From NCBI GenBank assembly GCA_039714635.1, contig JBDLIY010000001.1, positions 1 through 32,715 of the forward strand: a DNA stretch of 32,715 bases. Reading direction: 5' to 3'. Positions 9,414 to 24,973 of this stretch are shown one piece after another. The DNA comes from Planctomycetota bacterium. Its GTDB lineage: Bacteria > Planctomycetota > JAJSAM01. The position numbers and the translations under genes were made by a program. A model generated the notes under the pieces. That model did no database searches. It worked only from the letters and a program-made list of their open reading frames with translations, and was not told the origin of the DNA. The number at the start of each line of letters is the position of its first letter. Position 1 is the first letter of the stretch.

Positions 9414-10616
9414 ATGGCGGAACTACCGGAAACTCCCCTTCTAGATGAACTGGAGAAGGGACCCTGGCCGAGCTTCGTGACGGAGATCAAGACCGCCGCG
9501 AAGCGGACGGAATCGGCCAAGGACCTGCTCGGCCAGCTCGAGCGGTCCTACAGAGAGCGGATCGGCCACTGGAAGCACGGCGGGATCGTCGGCGTCCTCG
9601 GGTACGGGGGCGGCGTCATCGGCCGTTACTCGGACCTCCCGGACGACTTCCCGGGGATCTCCCACTTCCACACCCTCCGCATCAACCAGCCCGCGGGCTG
9701 GTTCTACACCTCGGAGGCCCTGCGCGGTCTCTGCGACATCTGGGAAGAGCACGGGTCCGGCCTGACGAACATGCACGGCTCGACCGGTGACATCATCCTG
9801 CTCGGAACGTCCACTCCCGAGCTGGAGCCCACCTTCAAGGCGCTGACGGATCTGGGGTTCGACCTCGGCGGCTCCGGCTCCGACGTGCGGACGCCCAGCT
9901 GCTGCCTCGGTCAGGCGCGCTGCGAGTGGGCCTGCTACGACACGATGGCCCTCACGCAGGACCTGACGATGTCGTTCCAGGACGAACTCCACCGTCCGAT
10001 GTTCCCGTACAAGTTCAAGTTCAAGATGGCGGGCTGCCCGAACGACTGCGTCGCTTCGATCGCTCGCGCGGACATGAGCATCATCGGGACCTGGCGGGAC
10101 GAGATCCAGCAGGACGACGCCGAAGTGAAGAAGTACGTCGACGACGGCCTGGACATCGTCCAGGACGTCATCCTGAACTGCCCCGGCAAGTGCATGGCCT
10201 GGGATGGCGAGAAGCTCGCCATCGAAAACGGCTCCTGCCGCAAGTGCATGCACTGCATCAACGTGATGCCGAAGGCGCTGGCCCCCGGGAAGGACCGGGG
10301 CGCGACGATCCTGCTCGGCTCCAAGGCCCCGATCGTCGAGGGCGCGCTGCTCTCGTCGGTGCTGGTGCCCTTCTGGAAGCCGGAAGCCCCCTACGAGGAC
10401 CTCAAGGAACTCGTGGAGGAGATCTGGGACGTCTGGGGCGAGGAAGGCAAGAACCGTGAGCGCGTCGGTGAGTTCATCCAGCGCGTCGGCCTCGGCAACT
10501 TCCTCGACGCGATCGGGCTCGACCCGGAGCCGGAGATGGTCGCCTTCCCGCGTGAAAACCCGTACGTGTTCTACGAGATGGACGAGGACGAGGACGAGGA
10601 GGACGACGATGAGTGA
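9414..10616 (+). CDS. dsrA: dissimilatory sulfite reductase alpha subunit
   Basis: 400 aa. Siroheme/[4Fe-4S] motifs CLGQARC (Cx5C) and CPNDC (Cx3C); ferredoxin-insert cysteines NCPGKC and CRKCMHC. Typical DsrA N-terminus [28 protein letters not shown]. Unusual acidic tail [13 protein letters not shown]. Confidence 0.97.
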
Positions 10617-11691
10617 TGCCGCCAAGAGGGTCACGGACATCGGCCCCCCGCATTACGACAAGTTCCTGCCTCCGGTCATCAAGGCCAACTACGGCAAGTG
10701 GAAGTACCACGAGATCCTGCGGCCGGGCGTGATGGTTCACGTCGGCGAGTCGGGCGACGAGATCTTCACCGTTCGCGGTGGCTCGCCCCGCCTCCTCTCG
10801 ATCGATCGCATCCGGGAATACGCGGACCTGGCCGACAAGTACTGCGACGGCCACCTGCGCTTCACGAGCCGCCACAACGTCGAGTTCCTCCTGTCGGACA
10901 AGGAGAAGATCGACCCGCTCATCGCGGACATGGACGCGGCGAAGATCCCGGTCGGCGGCATGGGCGCCTCGATCACCAGCATCGTTCACACGCAGGGCTG
11001 GGTGCACTGTCACTCGGCGGCGACGGACGCGTCCGGCATCGTCAAGGCGGTCATGGACGGCGTTCACCCGTACTTCACCGGTGAGAAGAAGGTCCCCGGG
11101 AAGCTGCGCATCGCCCTCGCCTGCTGCCTGAACATGTGCGGTGCCGTCCACTGCTCGGACATCGCGATCCTCGGCATCCACCGCAAGGCGCCGGTGACCG
11201 ACCACACCACGCTGAACAAGGTGTGCGAGATTCCGAACGTCGTGGCGTCCTGCCCGACGGCGGCCATCCGCCCCCAGAACATCGAGGGCAACCCGTCCGT
11301 CGAGGTGATCGAGGAGCAGTGCATGTTCTGTGCGAACTGCTTCACGGTCTGCCCGTCGATGACCCTGAACGACCCCGTCAACGACGGCGTCTCGATCTGG
11401 GTCGGCGGCAAGGTCAGCAACGCCCGCTCCGAGCCGATGTTCTCGAAGCTGGCCATTCCCTACATCCCGAACAATCCGCCGCGGTGGCCGGAAGTGACCG
11501 ATGCCGTTCTGAAGCTCGTCGAGCTGTGGGCCGACAACGCCAAGCCCTACGAGCGGATGGGCGAGTGGATCGACCGGATCACCTGGCCGAAGTTCTTCCG
11601 GATGGCCGGGATCGATTTCCAGAAGGAGCACATCGACGACTTCAAGCACGCCGGGCTGACCTTCAAGCGGTCGACCCAGATCGTGCACTGA
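10609..11691 (+). CDS. dsrB: dissimilatory sulfite reductase beta subunit
   Basis: Start at ATG 10609 inside ORF 10456..11691, overlapping dsrA by 8 nt. [76 protein letters not shown]. Confidence 0.97.
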
Positions 11692-11724
11692 GTCGAACTC
11701 ACCGGAGAAGGACAGGAGGCGGAA

Positions 11725-11973
11725 ATGTCTGACATGGTCAGTATCGACGAGATCGCCGACAAGATGTTCGAGCAGGTCAAGGCGGCCGCGGGCCAGAAGA
11801 AGCTGAAGCCCGGCGACCTGACCAAGATGATGATCGAGCTCTTCGGCGACCGGGTGGACAAGAAGCTCTGCAAGAAGGCCATCCGCCAGTTGATCGAGAC
11901 CGAACGCTGTGTCTACACATACTTCGGCGGCTCGTACATCGAGCTGCCGCACAAGGAAGGCGCAGAGAACTAG
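11725..11973 (+). CDS. dsrD: DsrD-like small winged-helix protein
   Basis: 82 aa directly after dsrB with an AGGAGG RBS. Lys-rich helix (KKLKPGDLTKMM, KKLCKKAIRQLIE) followed by YTYFGGSYIEL, resembling the DsrD Y..GS motif. The position after dsrAB is canonical. Confidence 0.8.
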   Translation: MSDMVSIDEIADKMFEQVKAAAGQKKLKPGDLTKMMIELFGDRVDKKLCKKAIRQLIETERCVYTYFGGSYIELPHKEGAEN

Positions 11974-11989
11974 GTCTCTCGATCGCTCG

Positions 11990-13408
11990 ATGACCGCCGC
12001 ACCTCCGAGACTCGTGGTAGCGGGTGCCGGGGGGGACTCGGGTAAGACCCTGGTCTCCCTCGGCCTCGCGAGCGCATGGCGGCAGGCCGGATTCGCCGTC
12101 TCCGCGTTCAAGAAGGGGCCCGACTACATCGACGCCGCGTGGCTTTCCCGCGCGGCGGAACGCCCCGCCCGCAACCTCGACACCTGGCTCATGGGTGAGC
12201 CGGGGGTGCTCCATTCCTTCGCCGTTCACTCCGCAGATACCGACGTCGCCGTGGTGGAGGGAAACCGGGGACTGCTCGACGGGCTCGACGGTACGAGTAC
12301 CGCGGCCCTGGCGACCACCCTCGGCGCCCCCGTCCTCCTCGTGCTCGACGTCACCAAGGTCACCCGGACCGCGGCCGCCTTCGTGGCCGGCTGCCGGGCC
12401 CTCGCGCCCGAGGTCCACATCGCCGGGGTCGTCGCCAATCGCCGGGCCGGGTCTCGACATGAATCCGAGGTCCGCCGTGCGATCGAAGGAGAGACGGGCG
12501 TCCCCGTGCTGGGTGCGATCCCGAAGCTATCGGACTCTCACCTGCTTCCCGACCGTCACCTCGGCCTCGTGCCGCCGGAGGAACACGACCGCATGGTCGA
12601 CGTCGTCCGACGGCTCGGCGGGGTGATGGCGGAGCACGTGGATCTGGACGCCCTTCTCGAAACCGCCCGTTCGGCCGGACCGCTCGAGTCGGTCCCGGAG
12701 CCGGACGGCGTGGACGCAACGGGTGCAGGCCTCCGGGTCGCGGTCTTCCGCGATTCCGCCTTCACCTTCTACTACCCGGAAAACCTGGAGGCGCTCGAGG
12801 CCGCCGGCGCGGAAGTCGTTCCCGTGTCCGCGCTCGACGATCCTCTCCTTCCCGAGGTCGACCTCCTCTACATCGGAGGGGGCTTCCCGGAGACTCACGC
12901 CGCCGCTCTGGCCGGAAACCGGTCCCTGATCGATTCCGTCGAGGGCGCCGTCCGGGACGGCCTTCCCGTCTACGCCGAGTGCGGAGGGCTGATCTGGCTC
13001 TCCCGTTCGGTGACCTGGCGGGGCCGGACCGCGGAGATGGCCGGTGTCCTCGGCGTGGACATCGAGGTCATGGAGAGGCCCCAGGGGCATGGCTACGCCG
13101 AGATGGCCGTCGACGAGGCCAACCCGTTCTTCGCTCCCGGCACGATCCTCAGGGGTCACGAGTTCCACTACTCCCGCCTGACGGGCGCGCCCGTCGACAC
13201 GCGGACGGTGATGGAGGTCCGCCGGGGGAAGGGGAGCCGGGACGGCCGGGACGGCCTGGTCGCGAACAACGTCTTCGCGTCGTGGAATCACCTGCACGCG
13301 ACCGCGACTCCCGAATGGGCGCCGGCCCTCATGGCGGCGGCCCGGGCCCGTCGCGGACGAAGTGGGGAAAGTCAGGAACGCGCAACCTGTGGAGGACGAA
13401 GCCGATGA
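11990..13408 (+). CDS. dsrN: cobyrinic acid a,c-diamide synthase family protein; siroheme amidase DsrN
   Basis: Start at ATG 11990 inside ORF 11909..13408. GGDSGKT ATP-binding loop and YAECGGLIWL glutamine-amidotransferase Cys. The dsr context gives the DsrN call. Confidence 0.85.
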   Translation: MTAAPPRLVVAGAGGDSGKTLVSLGLASAWRQAGFAVSAFKKGPDYIDAAWLSRAAERPARNLDTWLMGEPGVLHSFAVHSADTDVAVVEGNRGLLDGLDGTSTAALATTLGAPVLLVLDVTKVTRTAAAFVAGCRALAPEVHIAGVVANRRAGSRHESEVRRAIEGETGVPVLGAIPKLSDSHLLPDRHLGLVPPEEHDRMVDVVRRLGGVMAEHVDLDALLETARSAGPLESVPEPDGVDATGAGLRVAVFRDSAFTFYYPENLEALEAAGAEVVPVSALDDPLLPEVDLLYIGGGFPETHAAALAGNRSLIDSVEGAVRDGLPVYAECGGLIWLSRSVTWRGRTAEMAGVLGVDIEVMERPQGHGYAEMAVDEANPFFAPGTILRGHEFHYSRLTGAPVDTRTVMEVRRGKGSRDGRDGLVANNVFASWNHLHATATPEWAPALMAAARARRGRSGESQERATCGGRSR

Positions 13409-13854
13409 GCCCGAAGGAGAAGAAGTCCCAGAAGGAGCAGCAGGAGGAGCTCGTCGCTCTCCTCAAGAAGTGGCAGAAGCTCGAGGAGTCCGGCATCGCC
13501 CTGCTGAAGAGCCTCCAGGACCAGACGGACAATCCGGTCCTGCTGGAAGTCCTCGAGATCATCAAGCAGGACTCGGGGCAGCACCGTCGCGTCCAGCAGC
13601 TCATCCTCGATGGCCTCACGAAGGAGGCCTTCACCGTGACCCCGGAAGAGGTCGCGGCGATCTGGGACAAGGTCGAGGAGCACGACGAGCTGGAGAAGGA
13701 CGCGATCAGCATGGCCCACGAGGCCCGCAGGAACTCGAACCAGCTGTTCGTCCGTTTCTTCCTCGGCTACCTGCTGGCCGACGAGGAGAAGCACCACCGC
13801 ATGCTCGAGAACCTGGAGGACGTGAAGCGTGGGCTGTATCCATATGCGGGCTGA
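13405..13854 (+). CDS. hypothetical all-helical protein, possibly degenerate ferritin/rubrerythrin-like four-helix bundle
   Basis: 149 aa from ATG 13405 (ATGA overlap with the dsrN stop, GGAGGA RBS at 13391). Internally duplicated helical halves (EIIKQDSGQHRRVQQL vs LLADEEKHHRMLENL). Only the second half has a clean ExxH. Family not recognised with certainty. Confidence 0.6.
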   Translation: MSPKEKKSQKEQQEELVALLKKWQKLEESGIALLKSLQDQTDNPVLLEVLEIIKQDSGQHRRVQQLILDGLTKEAFTVTPEEVAAIWDKVEEHDELEKDAISMAHEARRNSNQLFVRFFLGYLLADEEKHHRMLENLEDVKRGLYPYAG

Positions 13855-13982: not shown

Positions 13983-15695
13983 ATGGCGATCAAGCGCTCG
14001 GGAAAGAAGAAGAAGAAGAAGCTCGGAAGTCTGAGGAGCTCGTCCAGCGGGTCCAGCACCGTGCAGTCGGATCGCCGGCCGAAGTGGGTGGCGAAGACGC
14101 CGCCCTGCCAGCTGAACTGCCCGCAGGGCACCGACATCCGGGGCATCCTCCGGACGATCGCCGACGGGGAGAAGCACGAGAAGCCGCGCGACGAGACGTT
14201 CCTGACCGCCTTCACGATGCTCACGAAGAACAACCCGTTCCCCTCCGTCTGCGGCCGCGTCTGCCCGCACCCGTGCGAGACCGGATGCAACCGCAACGAG
14301 TTGGACGAGGCGGCGAGCATCAACGCGATGGAGCGCTTCATCGGCGACTGGGGTCTCGAGAAGGAGCTGGCCCTGCCCGCGGGCGAGATGGAGCACGCCG
14401 ACAAGCCGATCGCCGTGATCGGCGCCGGCCCCGCCGGGCTGTCCGCGGCCTTCCACCTGCGGAAGCACGGCTACCCGGTCACCGTGTTCGAGGCCTTCCC
14501 GAAGGCCGGCGGGATGCTGCGCTACGGCATCCCGGCGTACCGGCTGCCCCGGGACGTCCTCGACGCGGAGATCCAGCGGATCGTCGACATGGGCGTCACA
14601 CTGAAGTGCGACGTCTCGATCGGCCGCGACATCCCCCTGGAGGAGATCCGGCAGCAGTACGCCGCGGTCTTCGTCGGGATCGGCGCCCACCAGGGCCGCC
14701 TCCTGCGCTGCCCGGGCGAGGACGCCGAGAACGTCTGGACCGGCACCTCGTTCCTGAACGAGGCGAACCAGGGCAAGACGATCGACGTCGGGAAGAACGT
14801 CGTGGTGATCGGCGGTGGCGACACGGCCATCGACGCGGCCCGGATGGCGCGTCGCATGGGTTCCGACGCCATGATCCTGTACCGCCGGACCCGCGAAGAG
14901 ATGCCGGCCATCCAGGAAGAGATCGACGGGGCGGAGAAGGAGGGCGTGGACATCCGCCTCCTCGCCGCGCCGCTCGAGATCAACGTGGAGAACGGCCGGG
15001 CCGTCTCGATGCGCTGCCAGGTGATGGAACTCGGCGAGCCGGATGACTCCGGCCGTCGCCGTCCCGTCCCGATCGAGGGCGAGGAGTTCACCATCCCGGT
15101 GGACACCATCGTCGCCGCGATCAGCCAGGAGCCGGACTTCACCGGCCTCGAGGACCTGCGCGAGACGCCGAAGGACTGGATCAAGGCCGACGAGTACGGC
15201 GCCACGCAGGTCGACGGCGTCTACTCCGGCGGTGACAACCTCAACCTCGCGCTCGTCACGACCGCCATCTTCCAGGGGCGCGTCGCGGCGGAGACGATCG
15301 ACTACGGCATCCGCGGTATCGAGCGTCCGGCCGAGGAGACGAAGCCCGAGATCAAGGCCGACAAGATGGTCCTCACCTTCTACGAGAAGAAGCTGAGGGA
15401 GCACGGGGAGGAGATGGCCGCCGAGGCGGCCCTCGCCGATCCGGACGCGGAAATCCAGTCCGGACTGACGGAGGAGCAGGCGGTGGAGGAAGCCGCCCGC
15501 TGCCTCTCCTGCGGGGAGTGCTTCGACTGCGGCACGTGCTGGAGCTTCTGCCAGGACAACGCCATCGTCAAGCCGCTGATCGTGGGCGACCCCTACAAGT
15601 TCAAGCTGGAGTTCTGCAAGGGCTGCGACAAGTGCGCGGAGCAGTGTCCGTGCGGCTACATCGAAATGTACGACCCCATGACCAGCTCCGCGTAG
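13983..15695 (+). CDS. dsrL: DsrL-type NAD(P)H oxidoreductase (GltD-like, two dinucleotide folds, C-terminal 2x[4Fe-4S] ferredoxin domain)
   Basis: 570 aa. N-terminal Cys clusters CQLNCPQG and CGRVCPHPCETGC. VIGAGPAGLSAA and VVVIGGGDTAIDAA. C-terminal CLSCGECFDCGTCWSFC and CKGCDKCAEQCPCG. Located between dsrN and dsrC. Confidence 0.85.
   Translation: MAIKRSGKKKKKKLGSLRSSSSGSSTVQSDRRPKWVAKTPPCQLNCPQGTDIRGILRTIADGEKHEKPRDETFLTAFTMLTKNNPFPSVCGRVCPHPCETGCNRNELDEAASINAMERFIGDWGLEKELALPAGEMEHADKPIAVIGAGPAGLSAAFHLRKHGYPVTVFEAFPKAGGMLRYGIPAYRLPRDVLDAEIQRIVDMGVTLKCDVSIGRDIPLEEIRQQYAAVFVGIGAHQGRLLRCPGEDAENVWTGTSFLNEANQGKTIDVGKNVVVIGGGDTAIDAARMARRMGSDAMILYRRTREEMPAIQEEIDGAEKEGVDIRLLAAPLEINVENGRAVSMRCQVMELGEPDDSGRRRPVPIEGEEFTIPVDTIVAAISQEPDFTGLEDLRETPKDWIKADEYGATQVDGVYSGGDNLNLALVTTAIFQGRVAAETIDYGIRGIERPAEETKPEIKADKMVLTFYEKKLREHGEEMAAEAALADPDAEIQSGLTEEQAVEEAARCLSCGECFDCGTCWSFCQDNAIVKPLIVGDPYKFKLEFCKGCDKCAEQCPCGYIEMYDPMTSSA
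14004..14021 (+). repeat. (AAG)6 trinucleotide repeat encoding Lys6 in the DsrL N-terminus
   Basis: gga aag aag aag aag aag aag ctc read directly; in frame with ATG 13983. Confidence 0.95.
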
Positions 15696-15776: not shown

Positions 15777-16100
15777 ATGAGTGATTTCGTCAAGGTCATC
15801 GATGGTGTCGAGTGCACGCTGGACGAGGATGGCTTCCTGCAGGAGCCGGATCTCTGGTCGGAGCGGGTCGCCGAGGAGTTCGCGAAGGACGAGGGCGTCG
15901 AGGCTCTCACCGACGACCACTGGAAGGTGATCAACTACCTTCGGGAGTACTACCTGAAGAACAAGATCGCGCCGATGGTCCGCCGCCTCTGCAAGGAGAC
16001 CGGCTTCAACGTCAAGCAGATCTACGAGCTGTTCCCCAGCGGCCCCGCGAAGGGCGCCTGCAAGCTCGCCGGCCTGCCGAAGCCGACCGGCTGCGTCTAG
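15777..16100 (+). CDS. dsrC: DsrC, sulfur-carrier/trisulfide substrate protein of DsrAB
   Basis: 107 aa. C-terminal arm CKLAGLPKPTGCV has both conserved cysteines (penultimate Cys and a Cys 11 residues upstream). HWKVINYLREYY core. AGGAGG RBS. Confidence 0.95.
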   Translation: MSDFVKVIDGVECTLDEDGFLQEPDLWSERVAEEFAKDEGVEALTDDHWKVINYLREYYLKNKIAPMVRRLCKETGFNVKQIYELFPSGPAKGACKLAGLPKPTGCV

Positions 16101-17554: not shown

Positions 17555-19310
17555 GAGGGGGGCTGAACGGGGGGTTGAGAAGGGGGCTGAGACGCGGATC
17601 GCACCTCGCAGCCGGCGGTCGCCGCGGGAGCGCGTCGAGGAGACGGTGGCGCGCGACTTCCCCGCCGTCACCCCCGAGTTCGGGGACGACCTCGTCGTCG
17701 TCGGTGCGTCGGAGATCGAAGGCACGCCGCCGGCCGGGTTCGAGGAGATGGTCTTCCCGAAGGACTCGCCCGCCGCGGGACAAGGCGTGCGTTTCCGGTC
17801 CGACGACGCGGTGTGGCTTGCGCTGCGGCGCTTCTACACGCCGCCGGTGGTCCTCGCCGGCGCGGGGCCGGGCGGCGTCTCCACCATGACGGTCGGGACC
17901 TGCCGGGCGCTGTCGAAGGCGGACGTGGTCCTGACCGACGCGCTCTGCGGCACGGACGTTCTCGAGTGCGTGGCCGACGACGCCGAGGTCATCCCCGTCG
18001 GCAAGCGCTGCGGGAAGCACAGCGCTGCGCAGGAGGACATCAACCGCCTCCTGCTCGAGAACGCGCGCCGCGGCCGCCGGGTCGTCCGGCTCAAGGGGGG
18101 AGATCCCTCGGTCTTCGGTCGTCTCGAGGAGGAGATCGCGACCCTCGGGGGGCAGTCGTTCTCCTATCGGGTTCTTCCCGGAATCGGGGCGGCGTCGGCG
18201 GCGGCGTCCATCGTCGGCCAGCCGCTCACGGTCCGCGAGGTGGCCAGCGAGATCATCTTCTCCACCGGCCGCCTGGCGGGGGGTGGGAAGAACCCGTTCC
18301 CCCTCAACGGCCCGACGGCGCCGGCGATCGCGCTCTACATGAGCCGCCGCGTGCTGGCGGAGCGGATGGCCGACCTCGAGACGGCGGGCTACGGCGAGAA
18401 CACCCCCGTGGCGGTCGTGGAGAGGATCGGTTCTCCCGAGGCCCGGGCCGTGGTGGGGACGGTGGGGACGATCGCCGCCGTCGCGGACGAACGGAAGGTC
18501 GGAACCCCGGCCGTCGTCCTCGTCGGCGCGCAGTTCACGAAGCCGCGCCACCTGCCGCTGGCCGGCGTCCGCATCTGGCTGCCGGGCGAGGCGGAGACGG
18601 CGGAGGGGCAGCGGGAGCCGCTCGAGGAACTGGGTGCGACCTGCGTCATGCGGCCGCTCATCGAGCCGGAGCCCTACCCGGTGGACGAGGGCGGCGTCTT
18701 CTCCCGGTCGTTCGACTGGGTGGTCTTCACCTCGAAGAAGGGCGTCGACTACCTGTTCGAACTGCTCGGGAAGTGGGGCCTCGACTCGCGCTGGTTGCCG
18801 CGGGTCGCGGCCATTGGCCATTCGACGATACGAAAGCTCAGGGCGCGCGGGATCGAGCCTGATCTCATGCCGTCCGAACACACCCGGGTTGCCCTGAGCG
18901 AATCCCTCATCGCCACCGGCCTCGATGGCCGCCGCGTGCTGATCCCCGCATCGAAGGTGGCGCCGGACCACGTGCGGGAGGCGCTGGCTCCCCACGCGGC
19001 GGAAGTCGTACGCCTGGATCTCTACGGCCTGCGCTTCCCGCGGGTCGAGACGGTTCCCGACGTGGACGTGATCCTCTTCTCCTCCGAGTCCACCGTGCGC
19101 TCCGCGGCGGAGAACGGACTCGTCGACGCCATCCGGGAGATGAACCCCGTGATCGGCGGCATCGGCCCCGCGACCTGCGGGACGCTCGACCGGATGGGGC
19201 TGACTCCGGCCATCGTCCCGGACGGCGTGAGCCCGACGAGCCTCGCATGGGCCACGAAACGGTTCTTCGCGCGCCTCGACCCGGCGCTCAGGGAGGCGAA
19301 CGCCCGATGA
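17547..19310 (+). CDS. fusion: uroporphyrinogen-III C-methyltransferase (CobA/SUMT) + uroporphyrinogen-III synthase (HemD), with N-terminal extension
   Basis: 587 aa. VVLAGAGPGG, LKGGDPSVFGR, VLPGIGAASAA (SUMT). The C-terminal half (WVVFTSKKGVDY, VILFSSESTVR) is HemD-like. GAGGTG RBS 6 nt upstream; 8-nt overlap with the previous gene. The first ~100 aa resemble nothing I recognise. Confidence 0.8.
   Translation: MVERGAERGVEKGAETRIAPRSRRSPRERVEETVARDFPAVTPEFGDDLVVVGASEIEGTPPAGFEEMVFPKDSPAAGQGVRFRSDDAVWLALRRFYTPPVVLAGAGPGGVSTMTVGTCRALSKADVVLTDALCGTDVLECVADDAEVIPVGKRCGKHSAAQEDINRLLLENARRGRRVVRLKGGDPSVFGRLEEEIATLGGQSFSYRVLPGIGAASAAASIVGQPLTVREVASEIIFSTGRLAGGGKNPFPLNGPTAPAIALYMSRRVLAERMADLETAGYGENTPVAVVERIGSPEARAVVGTVGTIAAVADERKVGTPAVVLVGAQFTKPRHLPLAGVRIWLPGEAETAEGQREPLEELGATCVMRPLIEPEPYPVDEGGVFSRSFDWVVFTSKKGVDYLFELLGKWGLDSRWLPRVAAIGHSTIRKLRARGIEPDLMPSEHTRVALSESLIATGLDGRRVLIPASKVAPDHVREALAPHAAEVVRLDLYGLRFPRVETVPDVDVILFSSESTVRSAAENGLVDAIREMNPVIGGIGPATCGTLDRMGLTPAIVPDGVSPTSLAWATKRFFARLDPALREANAR
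17550..17597 (+). repeat. imperfect tandem 24-nt repeat at the hemA-like/cobA junction
   Basis: GTTGAGAGGGGGGCTGAACGGGGG / GTTGAGAAGGGGGCTGAGACGCGG, encoding VERGAERG/VEKGAETR. Confidence 0.8.
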
Positions 19311-19428: not shown

Positions 19429-19947
19429 ATGTTGAGATCCCGGTTCACCGAACTTCTGGCGTCGAACCGGAAGGAGATCCACGACCGGTGGATCGCCCGC
19501 ATCCTCGCCGCCTATCCGCAGGAGTCCGCGAAGTTCATCGGGCGCGAGAAGGACCGCTTCAGGAACCCCATCGGCTCCACCCTCCAGGAGGGGACGACCG
19601 CCGTCCTCGACGCGCTCGAGGCGGGCGGGGAGGCCGAGGCACTTCGCGACGCGGTGGAGGGGATGATCCGGCTGCGCGCCGTGCAGGTGGACAAGGCGTC
19701 GGAAGCGGTTTCCTTCATCCCCGCCCTCGCCGACGTGGTGAAGCGCGTCCTCGGGGACAGCGTGACCGCGGAAGAAGTCTCGAAGTTCGAGACCCGGATG
19801 GAAGTCCTGCTGCTGGACGCCTTCGACACCTACATGCAGTGCCGGGAGAAGGTGTTCGAGATCCGACTGACGGAACTCAGGAACCGGACCTTCAAGCTTC
19901 TCGAGAGAGAGGGGGAGGTCTCATTGAAGCGAGGTGCTGATCGATGA
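19429..19947 (+). CDS. dsrT: DsrT (RsbRD N-terminal domain protein)
   Basis: Start at ATG 19429 inside ORF 19363..19947. MLRSRFTELLASNRKEIHDRWIARILAAYP..DRFRNPIG is the RsbRD_N-type signature. Immediately precedes dsrM with an ATGA overlap, as in sulfate reducers. Confidence 0.75.
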   Translation: MLRSRFTELLASNRKEIHDRWIARILAAYPQESAKFIGREKDRFRNPIGSTLQEGTTAVLDALEAGGEAEALRDAVEGMIRLRAVQVDKASEAVSFIPALADVVKRVLGDSVTAEEVSKFETRMEVLLLDAFDTYMQCREKVFEIRLTELRNRTFKLLEREGEVSLKRGADR

Positions 19948-20948
19948 ACGCTCTTGTCTCGTTCCTCGCGGTGGTCGCGCTCGTGGTGATCGCCCTGGCT
20001 GGTATTGGCTTGGGGGCGGGCGCCGGGGCGGACGTGGTGTTCGGGGTGATCATCCCGTACGCCGCCATCCTCCTGTTCCTCGTCGGGTTCGTCGTGAAGG
20101 TCCTCACTTGGGCGAAGGCCCCCGTGCCCTTCCGCATCCCGACGGTCGCGGGCCAGGCCGAGAGCCTCGACTTCATCCCGCAGCAGAAGCTGGAGAGCCC
20201 GAGCACGGGCGGGCAGGTCTTCGTCCGGATGGTGCTCGAGGTCCTCTTCTTCCGCTCCCTGTTCCGCAACACGCGGGCGGACATGAAGGCCGGCCCGCGC
20301 ATCGTCTACGGCGCCGACAAGCTGCTCTGGGCCGCGGCGATGCTGTTCCACTGGACGTTCCTGATCATCTTCCTGCGGCACCTGAGGTTCTTCACCGAGC
20401 CGGTCCCGTTCTGGATCTCCGGGATCGAGAGCCTCGACGCGTTCTTCGAGGTCACGGTGCCCGCGCTCTACCTGACGAACATTCTGATCGTCGTCGGCCT
20501 CGGCTGGCTCCTCCTGCGGCGGTTCCTCGAACCCCAGGTCCGCTACATCTCGCTGGCGTCGGACTACTTCCCCCTCTTCCTGCTCTTCGGGGTGGTGATC
20601 TCCGGCGTCTTCCTGCGCTACCTCACGAAGACGGACGTCGTGGCGATCAAGGAGCTGGCGATGGGCCTGCTCTCCTTCAAGTTCGCGGTGCCCGAGGGGA
20701 TCGGGGCGCAGTTCTACGTCCACCTCTTCCTCGTGAGCGCGCTGATCGCCTACTTCCCCTTCAGCAAGCTCATGCACCTTCCCGGCGTCTTCCTCTCCCC
20801 AACGCGGAACCTGGCGAACAACAACCGGAAGGTGCGCCACGTGAACCCCTGGAACCCCGAGGTGAAGAAGCACGAGTTCGACCACTGGAAGGAAGAGTTC
20901 GCAGAAGAGATCGCCGAGGCGGGCTACGAGCTAGAGGAGAGGGAGTAA
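19944..20948 (+). CDS. dsrM: DsrM, NarI-like dihaem cytochrome b membrane subunit
   Basis: 334 aa, multiple TM helices, conserved His (MLFHWTFLIIFLRHLRF; FYVHLFL; FPFSKLMHLPGVF). First gene of the dsrMKJOP order. Confidence 0.92.
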   Translation: MNALVSFLAVVALVVIALAGIGLGAGAGADVVFGVIIPYAAILLFLVGFVVKVLTWAKAPVPFRIPTVAGQAESLDFIPQQKLESPSTGGQVFVRMVLEVLFFRSLFRNTRADMKAGPRIVYGADKLLWAAAMLFHWTFLIIFLRHLRFFTEPVPFWISGIESLDAFFEVTVPALYLTNILIVVGLGWLLLRRFLEPQVRYISLASDYFPLFLLFGVVISGVFLRYLTKTDVVAIKELAMGLLSFKFAVPEGIGAQFYVHLFLVSALIAYFPFSKLMHLPGVFLSPTRNLANNNRKVRHVNPWNPEVKKHEFDHWKEEFAEEIAEAGYELEERE

Positions 20949-20952
20949 GGCC

Positions 20953-22575
20953 ATGGCCGACGAATACAAGCAGGAGGAGCTGGCGGCCGTCGACTACGGG
21001 TCGGTGCCGAAGACGGGCTGGATGGACACGCCGGCCGACTTCCGGAAGGGCAACTGGCTCTACGCCGGCGGGAAGAAGCACTTCGACTACCTCGACATGC
21101 CGAACTCGCACGAGTGGGCGCCGCTGGACGAGGACTGGAACCTGCCGGCGAACTGGAAGGAGATCATCCTCGAGGGGATGAAGGAGCGCCTCGCGAAGTA
21201 CCGCTCCTTCCGGCTCTTCATGGACATCTGCGTGCGCTGCGGCGCCTGCGCCGACAAGTGCCACTTCTACCTGGGCTCCGCCGACCCGAAGAACATGCCG
21301 GTGCTGCGCGCCGAGCTCCTCCGGAGCGTCTACAAGCGCTACTTCACGAAGGCGGGGAAGACCCTCGGCAAGCTGGTCGGCGCCCGTGACCTCACGATCG
21401 ACGTGCTGAAGGAGTGGTTCTACTACTTCTACCAGTGCACGGAGTGCCGCCGTTGCTCGGTCTTCTGCCCCTACGGGATCGACACCGCCGAGGTGACGAT
21501 GATCGGGCGCGAACTGCTGGCGCTCGTCGGGATCTCGGTCGGCTGGATCATGGAGCCGGCGGCGAACTGCTACCAGACCGGCAACCACCTCGGCGTGCGG
21601 CCGAACACCTTCAAGGACAACCTGGAGTTCGCGGCCGAGGACCTCGCGGACATCACGGGCATCGAGGTCGAGGTGCCGATCGACAAGGCCGGCGCCGACG
21701 TCCTCGTGGTCGTGCCCTCCGCCGACTACTTCGCCAACCCGCACTACTTCACGTTCCTGGGCTACCTCGCGCTGTTCCACGAGATCGGGCTCAACTACAC
21801 GTTCAGTCCGTTCGCCACGGAGGGTGGCAACTTCGGCCTCTTCCTGTCGAAGGACATGATGAAGAGACTGAACGTGAAGATCTACCAGGAGGCGAAACGC
21901 CTCGGGGTGAAGTGGATCCTCGGGTGCGAGTGCGGCCACATGTGGCGCGTGCTGCACCAGTACATGGACACGATGAACGGCCCGGCGGACTTCCTCGAGG
22001 TCCCGAAGTCGCCGGTCACCGGCACCGTGTTCAAGAACGCGGCGGCGACGAGCACGGTCCACATCTGCGAGTTCACCGCGGACCTGCTCAAGCACGACAA
22101 GCTGAACCTCGACATCAGCCGGAACGACGAGTTCAAGGTCACGTTCCACGACTCCTGCAACCCGGCCCGCGCGGTCGGGCTGCTCGAGGAGCCGCGCTAC
22201 ATCCTGGACCGCGTCCTCAACCACTTCGTCGAGATGCCGGAGAACACGATCCGCGAGCAGACCTTCTGCTGCGGCGGCGGCTCGGGCCTCGGCGCGGATG
22301 AAAACATGGAGGCGCGCCTGCGCGGTGGCCTGCCGCGGGCCAACGCGGTGAAGTACGTCCACGACAAGTACGGCGTGAACACGCTTTCCTGCATCTGCGC
22401 GATCGACAAGGCGGTCCTGCCGCCGCTGGTGGAGTACTGGGTGCCCGGGGTGGAGGTCGCCGGCATCCACGAGTTCGTCGGCAACGCGCTCATCATGAAG
22501 GGCGAGAAGAAGCGGGAGCTGAACCTCCGCAGCGAGCCGCTCCCGAACGGCGGGGAGGAGGTGGCCGATGAATGA
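20953..22575 (+). CDS. dsrK: DsrK, HdrD-like catalytic iron-sulfur subunit
   Basis: 540 aa. CVRCGACADKCH, CTECRRCSVFCP, and CCG domain HDSC-x36-CCGGGSG. Confidence 0.95.
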   Translation: MADEYKQEELAAVDYGSVPKTGWMDTPADFRKGNWLYAGGKKHFDYLDMPNSHEWAPLDEDWNLPANWKEIILEGMKERLAKYRSFRLFMDICVRCGACADKCHFYLGSADPKNMPVLRAELLRSVYKRYFTKAGKTLGKLVGARDLTIDVLKEWFYYFYQCTECRRCSVFCPYGIDTAEVTMIGRELLALVGISVGWIMEPAANCYQTGNHLGVRPNTFKDNLEFAAEDLADITGIEVEVPIDKAGADVLVVVPSADYFANPHYFTFLGYLALFHEIGLNYTFSPFATEGGNFGLFLSKDMMKRLNVKIYQEAKRLGVKWILGCECGHMWRVLHQYMDTMNGPADFLEVPKSPVTGTVFKNAAATSTVHICEFTADLLKHDKLNLDISRNDEFKVTFHDSCNPARAVGLLEEPRYILDRVLNHFVEMPENTIREQTFCCGGGSGLGADENMEARLRGGLPRANAVKYVHDKYGVNTLSCICAIDKAVLPPLVEYWVPGVEVAGIHEFVGNALIMKGEKKRELNLRSEPLPNGGEEVADE

Positions 22576-22966
22576 GGCGATGAACGACATGCCGAAGATC
22601 GTCGCGGGGATCGTGATCTTCCTGGTCCTCGTGCTCTTCCCGATCTGGTTCACGACCGCGGCCGGCGACTTCACGCCACCCGACCTGGGGGACGTGAAGA
22701 AGATCACCGGCGAAGAGGACTGCGTCCGCGACGTGGAGTGGATGCGCGCGAACCACATGGACCTGCTGGACTGCTGGCGGGACGACGTGGTGCGCCACGG
22801 AAACCGGGAGGACGAGAAGTCCGGCGAGGAGATGAGCCTCACGCGCACCTGTCTTCACTGCCACAGCGGCGAGGGGCGGAAGGCGAACTTCTGCGACCGC
22901 TGCCACGACTACGTCGGGACGAAACCGAACTGCTGGGACTGCCACATCGACCCGGAGGCCGAGTAG
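22568..22966 (+). CDS. dsrJ: DsrJ, trihaem cytochrome c
   Basis: 132 aa. N-terminal signal anchor and three CxxCH motifs (CLHCH, CDRCH, CWDCH), plus a conserved upstream Cys (EEDCVRD). Overlaps the dsrK stop; GGAGGAGG RBS. Confidence 0.92.
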   Translation: MNEAMNDMPKIVAGIVIFLVLVLFPIWFTTAAGDFTPPDLGDVKKITGEEDCVRDVEWMRANHMDLLDCWRDDVVRHGNREDEKSGEEMSLTRTCLHCHSGEGRKANFCDRCHDYVGTKPNCWDCHIDPEAE

Positions 22967-22968
22967 TC

Positions 22969-23739
22969 ATGGAACACTCCAGCGAAAAGACCACCCGGCG
23001 GACCTTCCTGACGACCACGGGCGCCACGATCGTCGCGATCGGCGTGGGCGGGCCGCTGCTCGCCTCCGCGGTCTCGAGGAAGCCGGCGGGTGACGGCCCG
23101 CGCTGGGCGATGGTGATCGACACGCGGAAGTGCCTCGAGAAGGGCGACTGCAACGAGTGCGCGCTCGCCTGCCACAAGGTCCACAACGTGCCGGACATCC
23201 CCTCGAACGGGCACGAGGTGAAGTGGATCTGGAAGGAGGACTTCAACCACGCCTTCCCGGGGCAGGAGCACGATTTCGTCCCGAAGCACATCGAGGGCCA
23301 GAAGCTGCCGGTGCTCTGCAACCACTGCGAGAACCCGCCGTGCGTGCGGGTGTGCCCGACGACGGCCACCTGGAAACGCGACGACGGCATCGTGATGATG
23401 GACATGCACCGCTGCATCGGCTGCCGCTACTGCACCGTCGCCTGCCCCTACGGATCGCGAAGCTTCAACTGGATGGATCCGCGGCCCCACATCAAGGAGC
23501 TGGATCCCGTCTTCCCGACCCGGACGAAGGGCGTCGTGGAGAAGTGCAACTTCTGCGCGGAGCGCCTGGTGAAGGGCGAACCGCCGGCCTGCGTGGCCGC
23601 CTGCAAGGGCGGCGCGATGGCGTTCGGCGACATCGGCGACGAGAACTCGGACGCCCGGAAGGCCCTGGCGTCGGCGGGCTTCACGATCCGCCGGAAGCAG
23701 GAACTCGGCACCGTCCCCCACGTCTTCTACATCGTGTGA
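22969..23739 (+). CDS. dsrO: DsrO, periplasmic 4Fe-4S ferredoxin-like subunit
   Basis: Start at ATG 22969 inside ORF 22738..23739. Twin-arginine signal TRRTFLTTTG. Cys clusters CNHCENPPCVRVCP, CIGCRYCTVACP and CNFCAERL..CVAAC. Confidence 0.92.
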   Translation: MEHSSEKTTRRTFLTTTGATIVAIGVGGPLLASAVSRKPAGDGPRWAMVIDTRKCLEKGDCNECALACHKVHNVPDIPSNGHEVKWIWKEDFNHAFPGQEHDFVPKHIEGQKLPVLCNHCENPPCVRVCPTTATWKRDDGIVMMDMHRCIGCRYCTVACPYGSRSFNWMDPRPHIKELDPVFPTRTKGVVEKCNFCAERLVKGEPPACVAACKGGAMAFGDIGDENSDARKALASAGFTIRRKQELGTVPHVFYIV

Positions 23740-23749
23740 GGAGGCAGAG

Positions 23750-24973
23750 ATGATCGAGAAGGCGCTCACGGGAAGTCGGCGGTACTGGACGCTGCTGACG
23801 GTGTTCGGCGGCCTGGTCTTCATCGGGCTGCTCTGCTACCTGCGCCAGTATCACGCCGGCCTGCAGGTCACCGGGCTCTCCCGGGACGTGACGTGGGGCT
23901 TCTACATCGCCCAGTTCACGTTCCTGGTCGGCGTCGCGGCCTCCGCGGTGATGGTGGTGCTGCCGTACTACCTGCACAACTACAAGGCGTTCGGGAAGCT
24001 GGCGGTGCTCGGCGAGTTCCTCGCCATCAGCGCCGTCATCATGTGCATGCTCTTCATCTTCGTGGACATGGGGAAGCCGACCCGCGTCCTGAACGTGATG
24101 CTGTACCCGAGCCCGAACTCGCTGATGTTCTGGGACATGGTCAGCCTGATGGGCTACCTGCTCCTGAACATCCTGATCAGCCGCGTGACGTTCGCGGCGG
24201 AGCGCAAGAGCATCGCGCCGCCGTCGTGGATCAGGTTCTTCGTCGTGCTCTCGATCCCGTGGGCCGTCTCGATCCACACCGTGACGGCGTTTCTGTACTC
24301 GGGCCTCGGGGCGCGCCCGTTCTGGATGACGGCGATCATGGCCCCGCGCTTCCTCGCGACCGCGTTCGCGGCCGGCCCGGCGCTGCTGATCCTGCTCAGT
24401 CTCCTCCTCAAACAGCTCAAGCTGTTCGACCCGGGGAAGGAGGCGGTCAAGAAACTCGCGGTGATCATCACGTACGCGATGGCGGCGAACATCTTCTTCC
24501 TCCTGATGGAGATCTTCACCGCGACGTACTCGGCCATCCCGGGCCACGTCGATCACCTCAAGCTCCTGTACGTGGGGCTCGACGGGAACACGACACTGGT
24601 GCCGTGGATGTGGCTCTCCTCGATCTTCTCCGTGATCGCCATGACCCTTCTCTTCGTCCCGAAGTGGCGGGAGAGGAAGGGCCTGCTGGTGGCGGCGTGC
24701 TTCATGGTCTTCTTCGGGATCTACTTCGAGAAGGGCCTGGGGATGGTCGTCGCCGGCTTCATCCCGACCACGATGCACACGGTCGTCGACTACGTGCCGT
24801 CCGGCACCGAACTCGGCATTTCGATCGGGATCTACGGGCTGGGCGCCCTGATCCTCACCATCCTCTACAAGGTCGCGGTGACGGTCCGCCGGCGCGAGCC
24901 GGAGGCGGCCTGGGCCGAGGAGAGGCCGGAGAACAAGGAAGAGGTTGCGGTCGCCGCGGCCGCCGGAGACTGA
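23750..24973 (+). CDS. dsrP: DsrP, NrfD/PsrC-family integral membrane subunit
   Basis: 407 aa with about 10 TM helices. Position after dsrO. GAGGAGG RBS. Confidence 0.9.
   Translation: MIEKALTGSRRYWTLLTVFGGLVFIGLLCYLRQYHAGLQVTGLSRDVTWGFYIAQFTFLVGVAASAVMVVLPYYLHNYKAFGKLAVLGEFLAISAVIMCMLFIFVDMGKPTRVLNVMLYPSPNSLMFWDMVSLMGYLLLNILISRVTFAAERKSIAPPSWIRFFVVLSIPWAVSIHTVTAFLYSGLGARPFWMTAIMAPRFLATAFAAGPALLILLSLLLKQLKLFDPGKEAVKKLAVIITYAMAANIFFLLMEIFTATYSAIPGHVDHLKLLYVGLDGNTTLVPWMWLSSIFSVIAMTLLFVPKWRERKGLLVAACFMVFFGIYFEKGLGMVVAGFIPTTMHTVVDYVPSGTELGISIGIYGLGALILTILYKVAVTVRRREPEAAWAEERPENKEEVAVAAAAGD

Follow-up and report, generated by a model that had tools for sequence, protein, structure and literature searches.

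The window, a 32,715-nucleotide stretch of DNA from an uncultured Planctomycetota-like bacterium, carries a complete and intact gene cluster for sulfate/sulfite respiration, in which reducer genes and dsrL occur together as a genuine mix. We consider that this locus probably represents the sulfite-reducing half of the canonical dissimilatory sulfate-reduction pathway, and that the reductive direction is its most likely physiological direction.

Organization of the dsr cluster

Between positions 9414 and 24973 on the + strand lie dsrA, dsrB, a dsrD-like gene, dsrN, dsrL, dsrC, dsrT, dsrM, dsrK, dsrJ, dsrO and dsrP (Table 1). An earlier note on this DNA had described the set as intact and co-oriented, and this was borne out, since all twelve genes were recovered on that strand at or near the places where it had put them, and no internal stop was present in any. 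Its coordinates held overall, with the starts of dsrB, dsrN, dsrT and dsrO now refined; its list was correct for the named genes but incomplete, as three further genes lie at 13405-13854, 16175-17554 and 17547-19310. Adjacent genes overlap by 4-8 nt or are separated by gaps of 2-128 nt. Among the 59-74 related loci of sufficient length, 57-69 keep the order dsrAB-D-N-(orf)-L-C...MKJOP; two same-family genomes (loci L124 and L125) conserve the entire cluster, and DsrEFH was found in none of 80 related loci.

Table 1. Genes of the dsr cluster in the window. Curated models are from NCBIfam, with scores in bits against the model cut-off.
Feature	Position	Strand	Basis
dsrA, dissimilatory sulfite reductase alpha subunit, reductive bacterial type	9414..10616	+	TIGR02064 585 bits, cut-off 393
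dsrB, beta subunit	10609..11691	+	TIGR02066 491 bits, cut-off 342; ATG start 10609; 8-nt overlap with dsrA
divergent dsrD, 82 aa, winged helix	11725..11973	+	homolog profile, AF2 fold, position after dsrB
dsrN, siroheme a,c-diamide synthase homolog (CobB family)	11990..13408	+	NF002204 418 bits; Pfam GATase_3 and CbiA
149-aa conserved four-helix, ferritin-like ORF	13405..13854	+	ATGA-coupled to dsrN; directly before dsrL
dsrL, type 2, predicted NADP(H)-type iron-sulfur flavoprotein, 'DsrL-2C'-like	13983..15695	+	NF009410 612 bits
dsrC	15777..16100	+	Pfam DsrC E 4.9e-39; TIGR03342 121 bits
fusion of precorrin-2 dehydrogenase (DsrV/CysG-N-like) and glutamyl-tRNA reductase (HemA-like)	16175..17554	+	TIGR01470, TIGR01035
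fusion of uroporphyrinogen-III C-methyltransferase (DsrW-like) and uroporphyrinogen-III synthase (HemD)	17547..19310	+	NF004790 227 bits
dsrT, RsbRD_N-domain protein	19429..19947	+	Pfam RsbRD_N E 1.5e-15; ATGA-coupled to dsrM
dsrM, membrane dihaem cytochrome b	19944..20948	+	NF038037 477 bits, cut-off 300
dsrK, CCG-domain iron-sulfur subunit	20953..22575	+	NF045796 701 bits, cut-off 400
dsrJ, trihaem cytochrome c	22568..22966	+	NF038038 130 bits, cut-off 100; three CxxCH motifs
dsrO, periplasmic FeS subunit	22969..23739	+	NF045797 296 bits, cut-off 200; twin-arginine (Tat) leader
dsrP, NrfD-type membrane subunit	23750..24973	+	NF045798 440 bits, cut-off 350

DsrC ends in CKLAGLPKPTGCV and so has both C-terminal cysteines, as had been claimed, and the N-terminus of DsrO reads MEHSSEKTTRRTFL. 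The two siroheme-synthesis genes between dsrC and dsrT encode fusion proteins, with the Pfam domains NAD_binding_7 (20-130), GlutR_N (171-313) and Shikimate_DH (332-437) in one and TP_methylase (101-309) and HEM4 (357-566) in the other. Both are conserved, with homologs in the same place, in the two same-family genomes, while the 80 other related loci gave scattered weak matches at 28-33% identity, in two loci per fusion. The 149-aa ORF had no family match; 22 of 59 related loci carry it, 21 with the ORF immediately 5′ of dsrL, and it has the invariant residues E27, D56, H60, H93, E97, D126, E127 and H130. Its AF2 model consists of four long helices (pLDDT 89.9), for which Foldseek returned only weak ferritin, Dps and bacterioferritin matches.

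Types of DsrAB, DsrL and the DsrD-like protein

We assigned DsrAB to the reductive bacterial type. DsrA is 62% identical to that of A. fulgidus and 60% to that of D. vulgaris, both crystallised reductive enzymes, compared with 46-49% to DsrEFH-linked DsrA (47-51% for DsrB), and for concatenated DsrAB the identities are 57% with D. vulgaris and 48% with a DsrEFH-linked reference (L104). The placement that the earlier note had proposed as a check gave the same answer: in a 104-row tree of DsrAB, drawn without the early-branching (archaeal or Moorella-type) sequences, 14 DsrEFH-linked sequences fell on one side of a branch of length 0.77 (SH-aLRT 100), and the window was nested with D. vulgaris on the opposite side. 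Placing the window inside the oxidative group cost 327 lnL units and was rejected (p-AU 4e-84).

The dsrL product (570 aa) has Fer4_20 (38-127), Pyr_redox_2 (142-432) and C-terminal Fer4_21 (512-562) domains. It groups with 64 other dsr-linked DsrL proteins (SH-aLRT 98), apart from the GltD/Nfn-like paralogs of its own genome; this clade and the C-terminal ferredoxin domain rule out an ordinary GltD homolog, confirming the DsrL identification that had been flagged for checking. We typed the protein by published criteria (PMC7596348). It has YRR, the NADP(H) motif, at residues 299-301 and S29..R32, where Arg32 replaces a Cys cluster ligand, and the 32-aa insertion is absent. Löffler et al. 2020 (PMC7596348) report the Arg-for-Cys substitution exclusively from DsrL-2 proteins whose hosts have reductive DsrAB. 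These features identify the window protein, as judged from sequence, as type 2, the reducer-associated kind. The reducer-associated subcluster has been named DsrL-2C (Diao et al. 2023, PMC10591310), and the window protein appears '2C'-like from its motifs, its context and our own tree, as distinct from the published DsrL tree.

The earlier note had taken dsrD and dsrT as reducer hallmarks. Homologs of dsrT occur in 49 of 80 related loci, and because one is also present in an oxidative, green-sulfur-type cluster (L141), dsrT is only a weak hallmark. The dsrD part of the claim stood even though the profile check failed: the Pfam DsrD model (PF08679) was silent for the 82-aa ORF even at E ≤ 10, and the label therefore needs indirect evidence. 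On the basis of its fold, a transitive profile link and its position, the protein is a divergent DsrD despite failing that model.

That the ORF is not a functional DsrD but a small winged-helix DNA-binding protein of other descent, placed after dsrB by chance, is very improbable; the locus would then be without a reducer marker. No Pfam or NCBIfam model matches the ORF, nothing in the whole draft genome reaches the cut-off of the Pfam DsrD model, and of at least 1670 homolog clusters none of the 120 listed has a Pfam annotation; however, a profile of the subfamily, run against a library of 1.8 billion proteins, retrieves two proteins (P0220 and P0242; E 6.5e-10 and 2.2e-7) that both exceed the gathering score of the Pfam DsrD model. 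A PDB sequence search missed 1UCR, hhalign reached a probability of only 27% against Desulfovibrio DsrD, and a narrow alignment (A1) was not significant in the same comparison, whereas 61 columns of a broader alignment (A2) were colinear with canonical DsrD (E 6.7e-4). Similarly, Foldseek ranked Fur-type regulators above DsrD, yet the AF2 model is a winged helix (pLDDT 88.6) of the DsrD length class, and the DsrD structures 1WQ2 and 1UCR are among its matches (target-normalised TM 0.69-0.76). A chance position is also difficult to reconcile with the 69 of 74 related loci, from many phyla, in which the gene lies directly 3′ of dsrB (median gap 25 nt), and orthologous acidobacterial proteins have been accepted as DsrD from conserved hydrophobic residues (PMC6018796).

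Direction of the pathway and the rest of the draft genome

The window belongs to a 4.46-Mb draft genome of 782 contigs (median 4.1 kb; 93% complete, 6% contamination) that contains one copy each of dsrAB and dsrC. The genome-wide search proposed earlier recovered sat, aprB (216 bits) and aprA (919 bits) on one contig (C245) and qmoA/B-like genes with qmoC (359 bits) on another (C109); soxB gave nothing above the cut-off and NrfA was not found. The statement that no dsrEFH was in view extends to the whole draft, in which neither HMMs nor tblastn with real DsrEFH detected any, although absence of dsrEFH and sox from a draft of this fragmentation and completeness is not proven.

In the pathway that we propose, Sat, AprBA and QmoABC, encoded on the other contigs, would convert sulfate to sulfite, which DsrAB would reduce onto the two cysteines of DsrC; the siroheme of DsrAB would come in amidated form from the embedded DsrV/W-like fusion enzymes together with DsrN. 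DsrL-2 would deliver electrons from NADPH to DsrAB, a role inferred from Desulfurella amilsii (Löffler 2020), and DsrMKJOP would release sulfide from the DsrC trisulfide with electrons from the quinone pool. By analogy with D. vulgaris, in which DsrD activates DsrAB allosterically (Ferreira et al. 2022, PMC8794893), the divergent DsrD may act likewise. The reductive direction also carries over from other organisms: the combination of DsrD, DsrL-2C and reductive DsrAB has been read as reductive (Diao 2023, PMC10591310; also PMC8794893 and PMC11406059). Membership in the DsrD- and DsrL-containing group, as the earlier note had it, stands, but because of this current reading the group is better understood than that note implied.

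The same genes might, partly or wholly, operate in the other direction, in sulfur or thiosulfate disproportionation or in sulfide oxidation through reversed Dsr, Apr and Sat with oxygen or nitrate, and DsrL-2 would then hand electrons to NADP+. The draft does contain a haem-copper oxidase subunit I (414 bits), a cytochrome bd (372 bits) and a NarG-like fragment, which on paper provide acceptors for sulfide oxidation, but the oxidase contigs are short (C561, 2.7 kb) and oxygen reductases are common in strict sulfate reducers, where they serve detoxification. The AU test did not reject attachment of the oxidative stem beside the window (p 0.14), which fits the position of genomes with DsrD and DsrL beside transitional clades (Klier 2024, PMC11406059). 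Desulfurivibrio alkaliphilus and peatland Acidobacteria have been put forward as candidates for both processes, and the option has been left open for organisms with DsrD and DsrL (Hausmann 2018, PMC6018796; Ferreira 2022, PMC8794893). Nonetheless, no known Dsr-dependent sulfur oxidiser has DsrD (PMC8794893), reductive use has been linked to YRR/NADPH specificity and to the Arg ligand (PMC7596348), and DsrEFH, SoxB and NrfA were not found in the draft, so that we regard operation in reverse as unlikely.

We attach still less weight to a binning artefact, by which foreign sat/aprBA/qmoABC or oxidase contigs would have made a sulfate reducer of a host that reduces only sulfite, thiosulfate or organosulfonates. 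Such short contigs could be mis-binned in an assembly this fragmented and contaminated, those with apr and qmo (6.3 and 10.2 kb) are separate from the window, a second DsrO/DsrP pair on a further contig (C314) may represent paralogy or contamination, and a TauE/SafE sulfite-exporter-family gene lies downstream of dsrP. However, an HdrA-like gene, putatively qmoA, lies at the end of C245, and C109 opens with the C-terminal portion of such a gene, which would fit a single broken sat-aprBA-qmoABC locus. Candidate coding frames retained on these contigs also have a third-position GC of 0.80-0.97, although this was an applied filter and not a comparison with the window.

Relation to known Dsr systems

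The nearest named relatives, like the named member of the family, are labelled Planctomycetota and belong to neither Acidobacteriota nor Nitrospirota, the phyla that the earlier note gave as examples. The acidobacterial loci that we fetched have 69-73% DsrA identity and the same gene order, and the likeness to peatland Acidobacteriota that the earlier note had pointed to proved correct. The MAGs SbA1-7 (Hausmann et al. 2018, PMC6018796) share reductive dsrAB, dsrD, dsrN, dsrL adjoining dsrC, dsrT, dsrMKJOP, the siroheme genes dsrV/dsrWa, upstream dsrM2K2 and syntenic unknown genes, with sat, aprBA and qmoABC elsewhere, oxygen reductases present and neither dsrEFH nor sox. The window differs in the Planctomycetota label of its host and in having its siroheme genes as two fusions between dsrC and dsrT.

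The divergent DsrD resembles D. vulgaris DsrD (1UCR/1WQ2) as a small winged helix (82 versus 78 aa) encoded directly after dsrB, and the 61 colinear columns include the Y-x-(W/F)-(S/G)-(S/G)-S wing motif; the similarity is nevertheless too low for the Pfam model, and C49 and C62, invariant in the subfamily, have no counterpart in D. vulgaris DsrD, which lacks cysteines. DsrL shares with DsrL-2 from organisms with reductive DsrAB, for which D. amilsii DaDsrL-2 is the biochemical model, the NADP(H) motif, Ser plus Arg at the two ligand positions of the distal cluster, short substrate-binding and linker domains, the C-terminal two-cluster ferredoxin domain and a gene just downstream of reductive dsrAB and dsrD, but it is only 47-60% identical to DsrL of the other reductive loci that we fetched.

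The oxidative loci L141 (green-sulfur-type dsrNCABLEFHTMKJOP) and L104 (dsrAB-EFH-C-MK-LL-JOP) have homologs of dsrAB, C, N, L, T and MKJOP in much the same order. In contrast to the window, they carry DsrEFH, no dsrD-like gene was detected in them, their DsrAB is 46-51% identical across the fully supported branch, and their DsrL has Cys in place of Arg and SGV/SLF in place of YRR, except that the second DsrL copy of L104 keeps the Cys but has YRR. The combination of reducer genes with DsrL has been published (Hausmann 2018, PMC6018796; Löffler 2020, PMC7596348; Diao 2023, PMC10591310; Klier 2024, PMC11406059). From 2018 onwards it has been reported from numerous bacterial phyla, so that the window cluster is an ordinary new example of it.

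The dsr gene row

Between 9414 and 24973, 15 genes on the + strand lie in one row with no internal stops; between neighbours there are either overlaps of 4-8 nt or gaps of 2-128 nt, and the G+C content of the window is 67%. DsrA and DsrB matched their NCBIfam equivalogs over the full length, and all five subunits of DsrMKJOP, encoded in one row, scored above the equivalog cut-offs. DsrJ has three CxxCH (haem c) motifs, DsrO has an N-terminal twin-arginine (Tat) leader, and DsrT carries RsbRD_N, the domain typical of this protein. The starts of dsrB, dsrN, dsrT and dsrO were revised. The dsr genes named in the earlier note are intact and on one strand, and its statement that DsrC has two C-terminal cysteines agrees with the C-terminus of the protein (...GACKLAGLPKPTGCV / ...CKLAGLPKPTGCV), in which both conserved cysteines of the arm are present. 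The genes that it listed are all there, but its list left out three further genes inside the span.

Features of the dsr row and its surroundings, with scores in bits and NCBIfam equivalog cut-offs in brackets
Feature	Position	Strand	Match or description
DsrA		+	TIGR02064, 585 (393)
DsrB	start 10609	+	TIGR02066, 491 (342)
82-aa protein	11725-11973	+	putative divergent DsrD
DsrN	start 11990	+	CobB-type a,c-diamide synthase, 418
149-aa ORF	13405-13854	+	ATGA-coupled to dsrN, directly before dsrL
Tandem duplication, ~60 nt	13836-13950		GC-rich
DsrL	13983-15695	+	570 aa, no stops, 2.3 kb downstream of dsrB
DsrC		+	Pfam DsrC, E 5e-39
Precorrin-2 dehydrogenase (CysG-N-like) + glutamyl-tRNA reductase (HemA-like) fusion	16175-17554	+	
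Uroporphyrinogen-III methyltransferase + HemD fusion	17547-19310	+	
DsrT	start 19429	+	directly before dsrM; RsbRD_N, E 1.5e-15
DsrM		+	477 (300)
DsrK		+	701 (400)
DsrJ		+	130 (100)
DsrO	start 22969	+	296 (200)
DsrP		+	440 (350)
TauE/SafE-family permease	25028-26131		Pfam E 4e-29
DsrM-like/DsrK-like pair, DVU0259-family receiver-domain protein, NtrC-type sigma-54 activator and 454-aa ORF	3368-6295, 6333-9031		upstream of dsrA

In the literature, the counterparts of the two siroheme fusion genes are named dsrV and dsrW/dsrWa (PMC6018796). Both are kept, along with the whole cluster, in two of the three other genomes of the same family that were sampled, and among the 80 other named related loci (DsrA relatives of the window from metagenome-assembled genomes) their homologs were scattered weak matches only, at 28-33% identity (L049, L084, L014 and L040). 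That the dsr operon of this family includes the siroheme pathway in the form of two fusion genes was new to us.

The 149-aa ORF, for which no family model matched, was found in 22 of the 59 related loci that extend far enough, directly before dsrL in 21 of these. Eight residues are invariant (E27, D56, H60, H93, E97, D126, E127 and H130), together with a C-terminal YPYA, and the predicted fold consists of four long helices (pLDDT 89.9), which Foldseek matched weakly, and only, to bacterioferritin, Dps and encapsulated ferritin (E 0.1-1). The protein may bind metal and act as a partner of DsrL-2. The stop codon of this ORF is covered by the tandem duplication (...cctctggccctgcgggcccgggcaccggcctgtg...), which occupies most of the 128-nt gap upstream of dsrL.

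The gene of the TauE/SafE-family permease, a sulfite/sulfonate exporter family, begins 54 nt past dsrP, and the green-sulfur-type dsr clusters L140 and L141 also have a TauE homolog nearby. Upstream of dsrA, the DsrM-like/DsrK-like pair is a second one in addition to that of the row, and on the opposite strand an NtrC-type sigma-54 activator adjoins a 454-aa ORF, which the earlier note had read as a kinase and which had no NCBIfam family match.

The 82-residue protein encoded after dsrB

This protein had been called DsrD, with a failed DsrD profile search set beforehand as a result that would refute the call. The standard search did fail: the protein had no match to the Pfam DsrD model (PF08679) even at E ≤ 10 and none in NCBIfam, and the best match of PF08679 across the whole genome was a chance-level 12.4 bits in an unrelated place. 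A PDB sequence search with the protein did not find the D. vulgaris DsrD, and comparison with the DsrD entries of the PDB by sequence and profile searches gave nothing significant. The family to which it belongs comprises at least 1670 clusters of ~82 residues each; among the 120 clusters listed, none had a Pfam annotation and most were named 'hypothetical protein'. Labels of individual members in the sources (homologs P0005-P0123) include 'hypothetical protein', 'transposase-like protein' and 'phage gp16-like protein'.

The other evidence still favours a divergent DsrD. An AlphaFold (AF2) model built from 35 homologs (pLDDT 88.6) predicts three helices and a two-strand wing, the small winged-helix fold expected of DsrD. 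Foldseek aligned this model with the DsrD structures 1WQ2 and 1UCR at target-normalised TM scores of 0.76 and 0.69, while many other winged-helix proteins matched equally well. A profile of the subfamily gave 164 matches among 1.8 billion representative proteins, and 8 of 40 aligned members fit the Pfam DsrD model at E ≤ 0.01. Two of these eight, P0220 and P0242, provide a transitive link, since the subfamily profile reaches them at E 6.5e-10 and 2.2e-7, respectively, and they score 27.1 and 26.2 bits on Pfam DsrD, for which the gathering cut-off is 24.2. When compared with 24 Desulfovibrio-type DsrD sequences by hhalign, a broader alignment of the family (A2) was colinear over 61 columns at E 6.7e-4, with a probability of only 27%, and the profile-profile comparison of the narrow alignment of 35 close homologs (A1) with Desulfovibrio DsrD was not significant.

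The gene lies 33 nt beyond dsrB. Of the 74 related loci that extend far enough, 69 have a DsrD-like homolog as the next gene after dsrB, with a median gap of 25 nt. Furthermore, acidobacterial members of the group have been accepted as DsrD by Hausmann et al. from conserved hydrophobic residues (PMC6018796). Because of its family, predicted fold, transitive profile link, position and the literature, we read the 82-residue protein as a DsrD from a subfamily outside the reach of the Pfam model, with putative DsrAB binding and activation. The DsrD call was upheld by fold and position after dsrB, but not by a Pfam or NCBIfam match. A difference from the known protein is that two cysteines, C49 and C62, are invariant in A1, whereas D. 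vulgaris DsrD has none.

It was new to us that the Pfam DsrD model is blind to a whole subfamily of more than 1600 clusters. Since the model misses this subfamily, pipelines that use it as a marker would misclassify such genomes as devoid of the reducer marker.

Types of DsrAB and DsrL

The DsrA of the window is 62% identical to that of A. fulgidus and 60% identical to that of D. vulgaris, both crystallised reductive enzymes, and 66-84% identical to those of the 80 named metagenome-assembled genomes, which are labelled as Planctomycetota, Ignavibacteria, Zixibacteria, Elusimicrobiota, Gemmatimonadota, Acidobacteriota and Myxococcota. Identities with the DsrEFH-linked references were 46-49% for DsrA and 47-51% for DsrB. 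One of these oxidative references was the second dsrAB of genome G065 (locus L104), which is followed by genes scoring as DsrE, DsrF and DsrH (141, 124 and 107 bits) and, downstream of these, by dsrC-MK-LL-JOP, the arrangement described by Diao et al. in a Myxococcota_B genome (PMC10591310). The others came from 13 genomes of 2-3 Mb with a green-sulfur-type cluster, whose order, checked in locus L141, is dsrN-C-A-B-L-E-F-H-T-M-K-J-O-P. In the phylum of genome G002, dsrA is mostly reductive, and one genome, G065, has a second, oxidative copy. Viral contigs scanned for rDsrA as a further oxidative reference yielded none, nor did a protein search of a plasmid collection with DsrA.

We built a tree of 104 concatenated DsrAB rows, 14 of them DsrEFH-linked, with D. 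vulgaris as an anchor and no early-branching (archaeal/Moorella-type) DsrAB among them. Lineages of that kind have neither dsrD nor dsrL (PMC10591310), so that the two genes in the window indirectly suggest a place outside them. The 14 DsrEFH-linked rows were split off by a single branch (SH-aLRT 100, length 0.77), and the window lay on the D. vulgaris side, inside nested clades with support of 100, 97 and 96, as the sister of L006 ('Planctomycetota bacterium GMC4.metabat2.66'). A position of the window within the oxidative group cost 327 lnL units and was rejected by an AU test (p-AU 4e-84). A looser constraint, under which a single branch had only to separate the window together with all oxidative rows from the others, passed the test (p 0.14); we read this value as uncertainty in the attachment point of the long oxidative stem and not as a sign that the window is oxidative, and such uncertainty fits the placement by Klier et al. 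2024, in which genomes with DsrD and DsrL adjoin transitional clades (PMC11406059). The concatenated tree, a check that the earlier note had proposed, puts the protein on the reductive side with D. vulgaris: the DsrAB of the window is of the reductive bacterial type, outside the rDsrAB clade. The oxidative type is ruled out by the tree split together with the AU test.

The domains of DsrL follow the order of an N-terminal 2x[4Fe-4S] ferredoxin (Pfam Fer4_20, residues 38-127), a FAD domain that encloses the NAD(P) domain (Pyr_redox_2, 142-432, and Pyr_redox, 272-340), a linker and a C-terminal 2x[4Fe-4S] ferredoxin (Fer4_21, 512-562). The neighbours of its gene are the 149-aa ORF and dsrN on one side and dsrC on the other, with no adjacent genes for a 2-oxoacid (pyruvate/ketoisovalerate):ferredoxin oxidoreductase. 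Löffler et al. 2020 count a protein as DsrL if its gene is complete and occurs in an organism with dsrAB, if its domains stand in this order and if no such oxidoreductase genes lie next to it (PMC7596348), and all three points apply to the protein of the window. In its NAD(P) domain, the motif ILYRRTREEMP (residues 297-307) contains the YRR that Löffler et al. tied to NADP(H) specificity (PMC7596348). The positions of the distal N-terminal cluster are occupied by Ser29 and Arg32 (S29-D-R-R32-P, against S-H-K-C-P in the DsrL of oxidative loci), with arginine at the position of NfnB Cys42, a replacement reported only for the DsrL-2 of organisms with reductive DsrAB (PMC7596348). The ~32-aa insertion and the long linker of DsrL-1A are both absent.

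Our own alignment agrees with this rule: S-x-x-R and YRR were present in all 64 DsrL sequences of reductive loci, and the DsrL of green-sulfur-type loci had S-H-K-C and SGV. The two DsrL copies of L104 (654-657 aa) both carry the insertion, and one has the cysteine and SLF. The other copy (L104:9753 onward, G065:C129) has mixed features, namely the long insertion of the DsrL-1A type, the cysteine ligand and YRR. In the DsrL tree, the 65 sequences from reductive loci were monophyletic (SH-aLRT 98), and outside this clade lay the L104 copies and the three GltD/Nfn-like paralogs of the genome, which are 34-39% identical to the DsrL of the window. Judged from the motifs and our tree, the DsrL of the window is of type 2 and corresponds to the DsrL-2C of Diao et al. 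2023 (PMC10591310). An ordinary GltD homolog is ruled out by the domain architecture, operon context and tree. The DsrL call of the earlier note, which had left type and NAD versus NADP motif to be checked, held up with a type 2 assignment, YRR and the arginine ligand.

Pathway direction, host lineage and published systems

The draft genome, in which the window forms contig 1, totals 4.46 Mb in 782 contigs, with 69% G+C, 93% completeness and 6% contamination. A full copy of sat is found on C206 (357 bits) and a partial copy on C245, which also carries aprB (216 bits, above the cut-off) and aprA (919 bits) and ends in an HdrA-like gene where qmoA would be expected. Contig C109 carries a C-terminal HdrA-like gene fragment, followed by a second HdrA-like gene of 760 aa and by qmoC (359 bits, above the cut-off). 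The HdrA-like genes matched no Qmo-specific model and only HdrA models, well below the cut-off; because of their position before qmoC we read the two as putative qmoA and qmoB. With sat, aprBA and qmoABC on separate contigs of the draft, the genome would hold a complete sulfate reduction pathway. Following qmoC, C109 (L122) has DsrJ-like (37%), DsrO-like (40%) and NrfD/DsrP-like genes, and another DsrO-like gene (187 bits) lies with a DsrP (409 bits, above the cut-off) on C314 (L123); these JOP-type genes could be a second module attached to Qmo, or contamination.

The earlier note had seen no dsrEFH in the window, and this extends to the whole 93%-complete draft genome, in which DsrE (TIGR03012) had no match at E ≤ 1 and DsrE, DsrF and DsrH had no tblastn match with the L104 proteins. 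Of the genes that it had suggested searching for, sat, apr and qmoC were thus found together with the putative qmoA and qmoB, and dsrEFH and soxB were not. The same draft contains no SoxB above the cut-off, no NrfA, and no second dsrAB or dsrC, and the DsrAB and DsrL of the window are not of the oxidative rDsrAB and DsrL-1 types.

By analogy with characterised systems, the pathway probably runs in the reductive direction. Genes for activating sulfate and reducing it to sulfite are present in the draft; DsrAB would reduce sulfite to the DsrC trisulfide, and DsrMKJOP would then reduce the trisulfide with quinol. DsrD would activate DsrAB allosterically, as in D. vulgaris (PMC8794893), and DsrL-2 would supply NADPH electrons to DsrAB, as in Desulfurella amilsii (PMC7596348). 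The operon includes genes for siroheme synthesis and amidation. Disproportionation, or reversal of the pathway coupled to oxygen or nitrate, is in our judgement unlikely. The draft contains a haem-copper oxidase subunit I, a cytochrome bd subunit I that is split in two, and a NarG-like fragment of 70 residues that lies at the end of a contig; the contigs concerned (C561, C231, C617 and C708) are all short and of uncertain assignment to the host. What probability remains belongs to the caveats of binning and of the 82-residue protein not being DsrD, which overlap with the reductive and the reversal readings.

The window-type DsrD co-occurs almost always with DsrL-2, and about one third of the loci add the ferritin-like four-helix gene before dsrL. 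It is conceivable, though we consider it very improbable, that this DsrD is a distinct subfamily which forms a redox-sensing module with DsrL-2, the four-helix protein and DsrAB. In facultatively aerobic hosts, this module would adjust the activity of the sulfite reductase, or even reverse it, instead of just activating reduction.

Gene content was counted among the 80 related loci, with counts referring, where stated, to loci with room for the feature: dsrL lies within 5 kb downstream in 57 of 59 with room, a dsrT homolog occurs in 49 of 80, and DsrEFH in none of 80. Among the genomes sampled, dsrA was present in all three others of the family but was rare beyond it, in 1 of 13 of the same order and in 1 of 24 from the rest of the phylum; the genome of L006 belongs to the same family as that of the window. 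A family-level lineage labelled Planctomycetota joins the uncultured bacteria with a DsrD + DsrL-2 sulfate-reduction pathway.

The observation of the earlier note that dsrD and dsrL stand together in one locus, and its interpretation, were correct. Planctomycetes were already among the dsrL carriers of Löffler et al. (PMC7596348). The combination of dsrD and dsrL without dsrEFH was a surprise in 2018, when it was found, along with the same set of accessory genes, in peatland Acidobacteria (PMC6018796); it was explained biochemically in 2020 (PMC7596348) and 2022 (PMC8794893), DsrD with DsrL-2C and reductive DsrAB was catalogued over many phyla in 2023 (PMC10591310), and genomes with DsrD and DsrL were recognised as a clade in 2024 (PMC11406059). 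Since it has been published in this way, the combination in the window is an already known one, and the view of how such systems work is unchanged.
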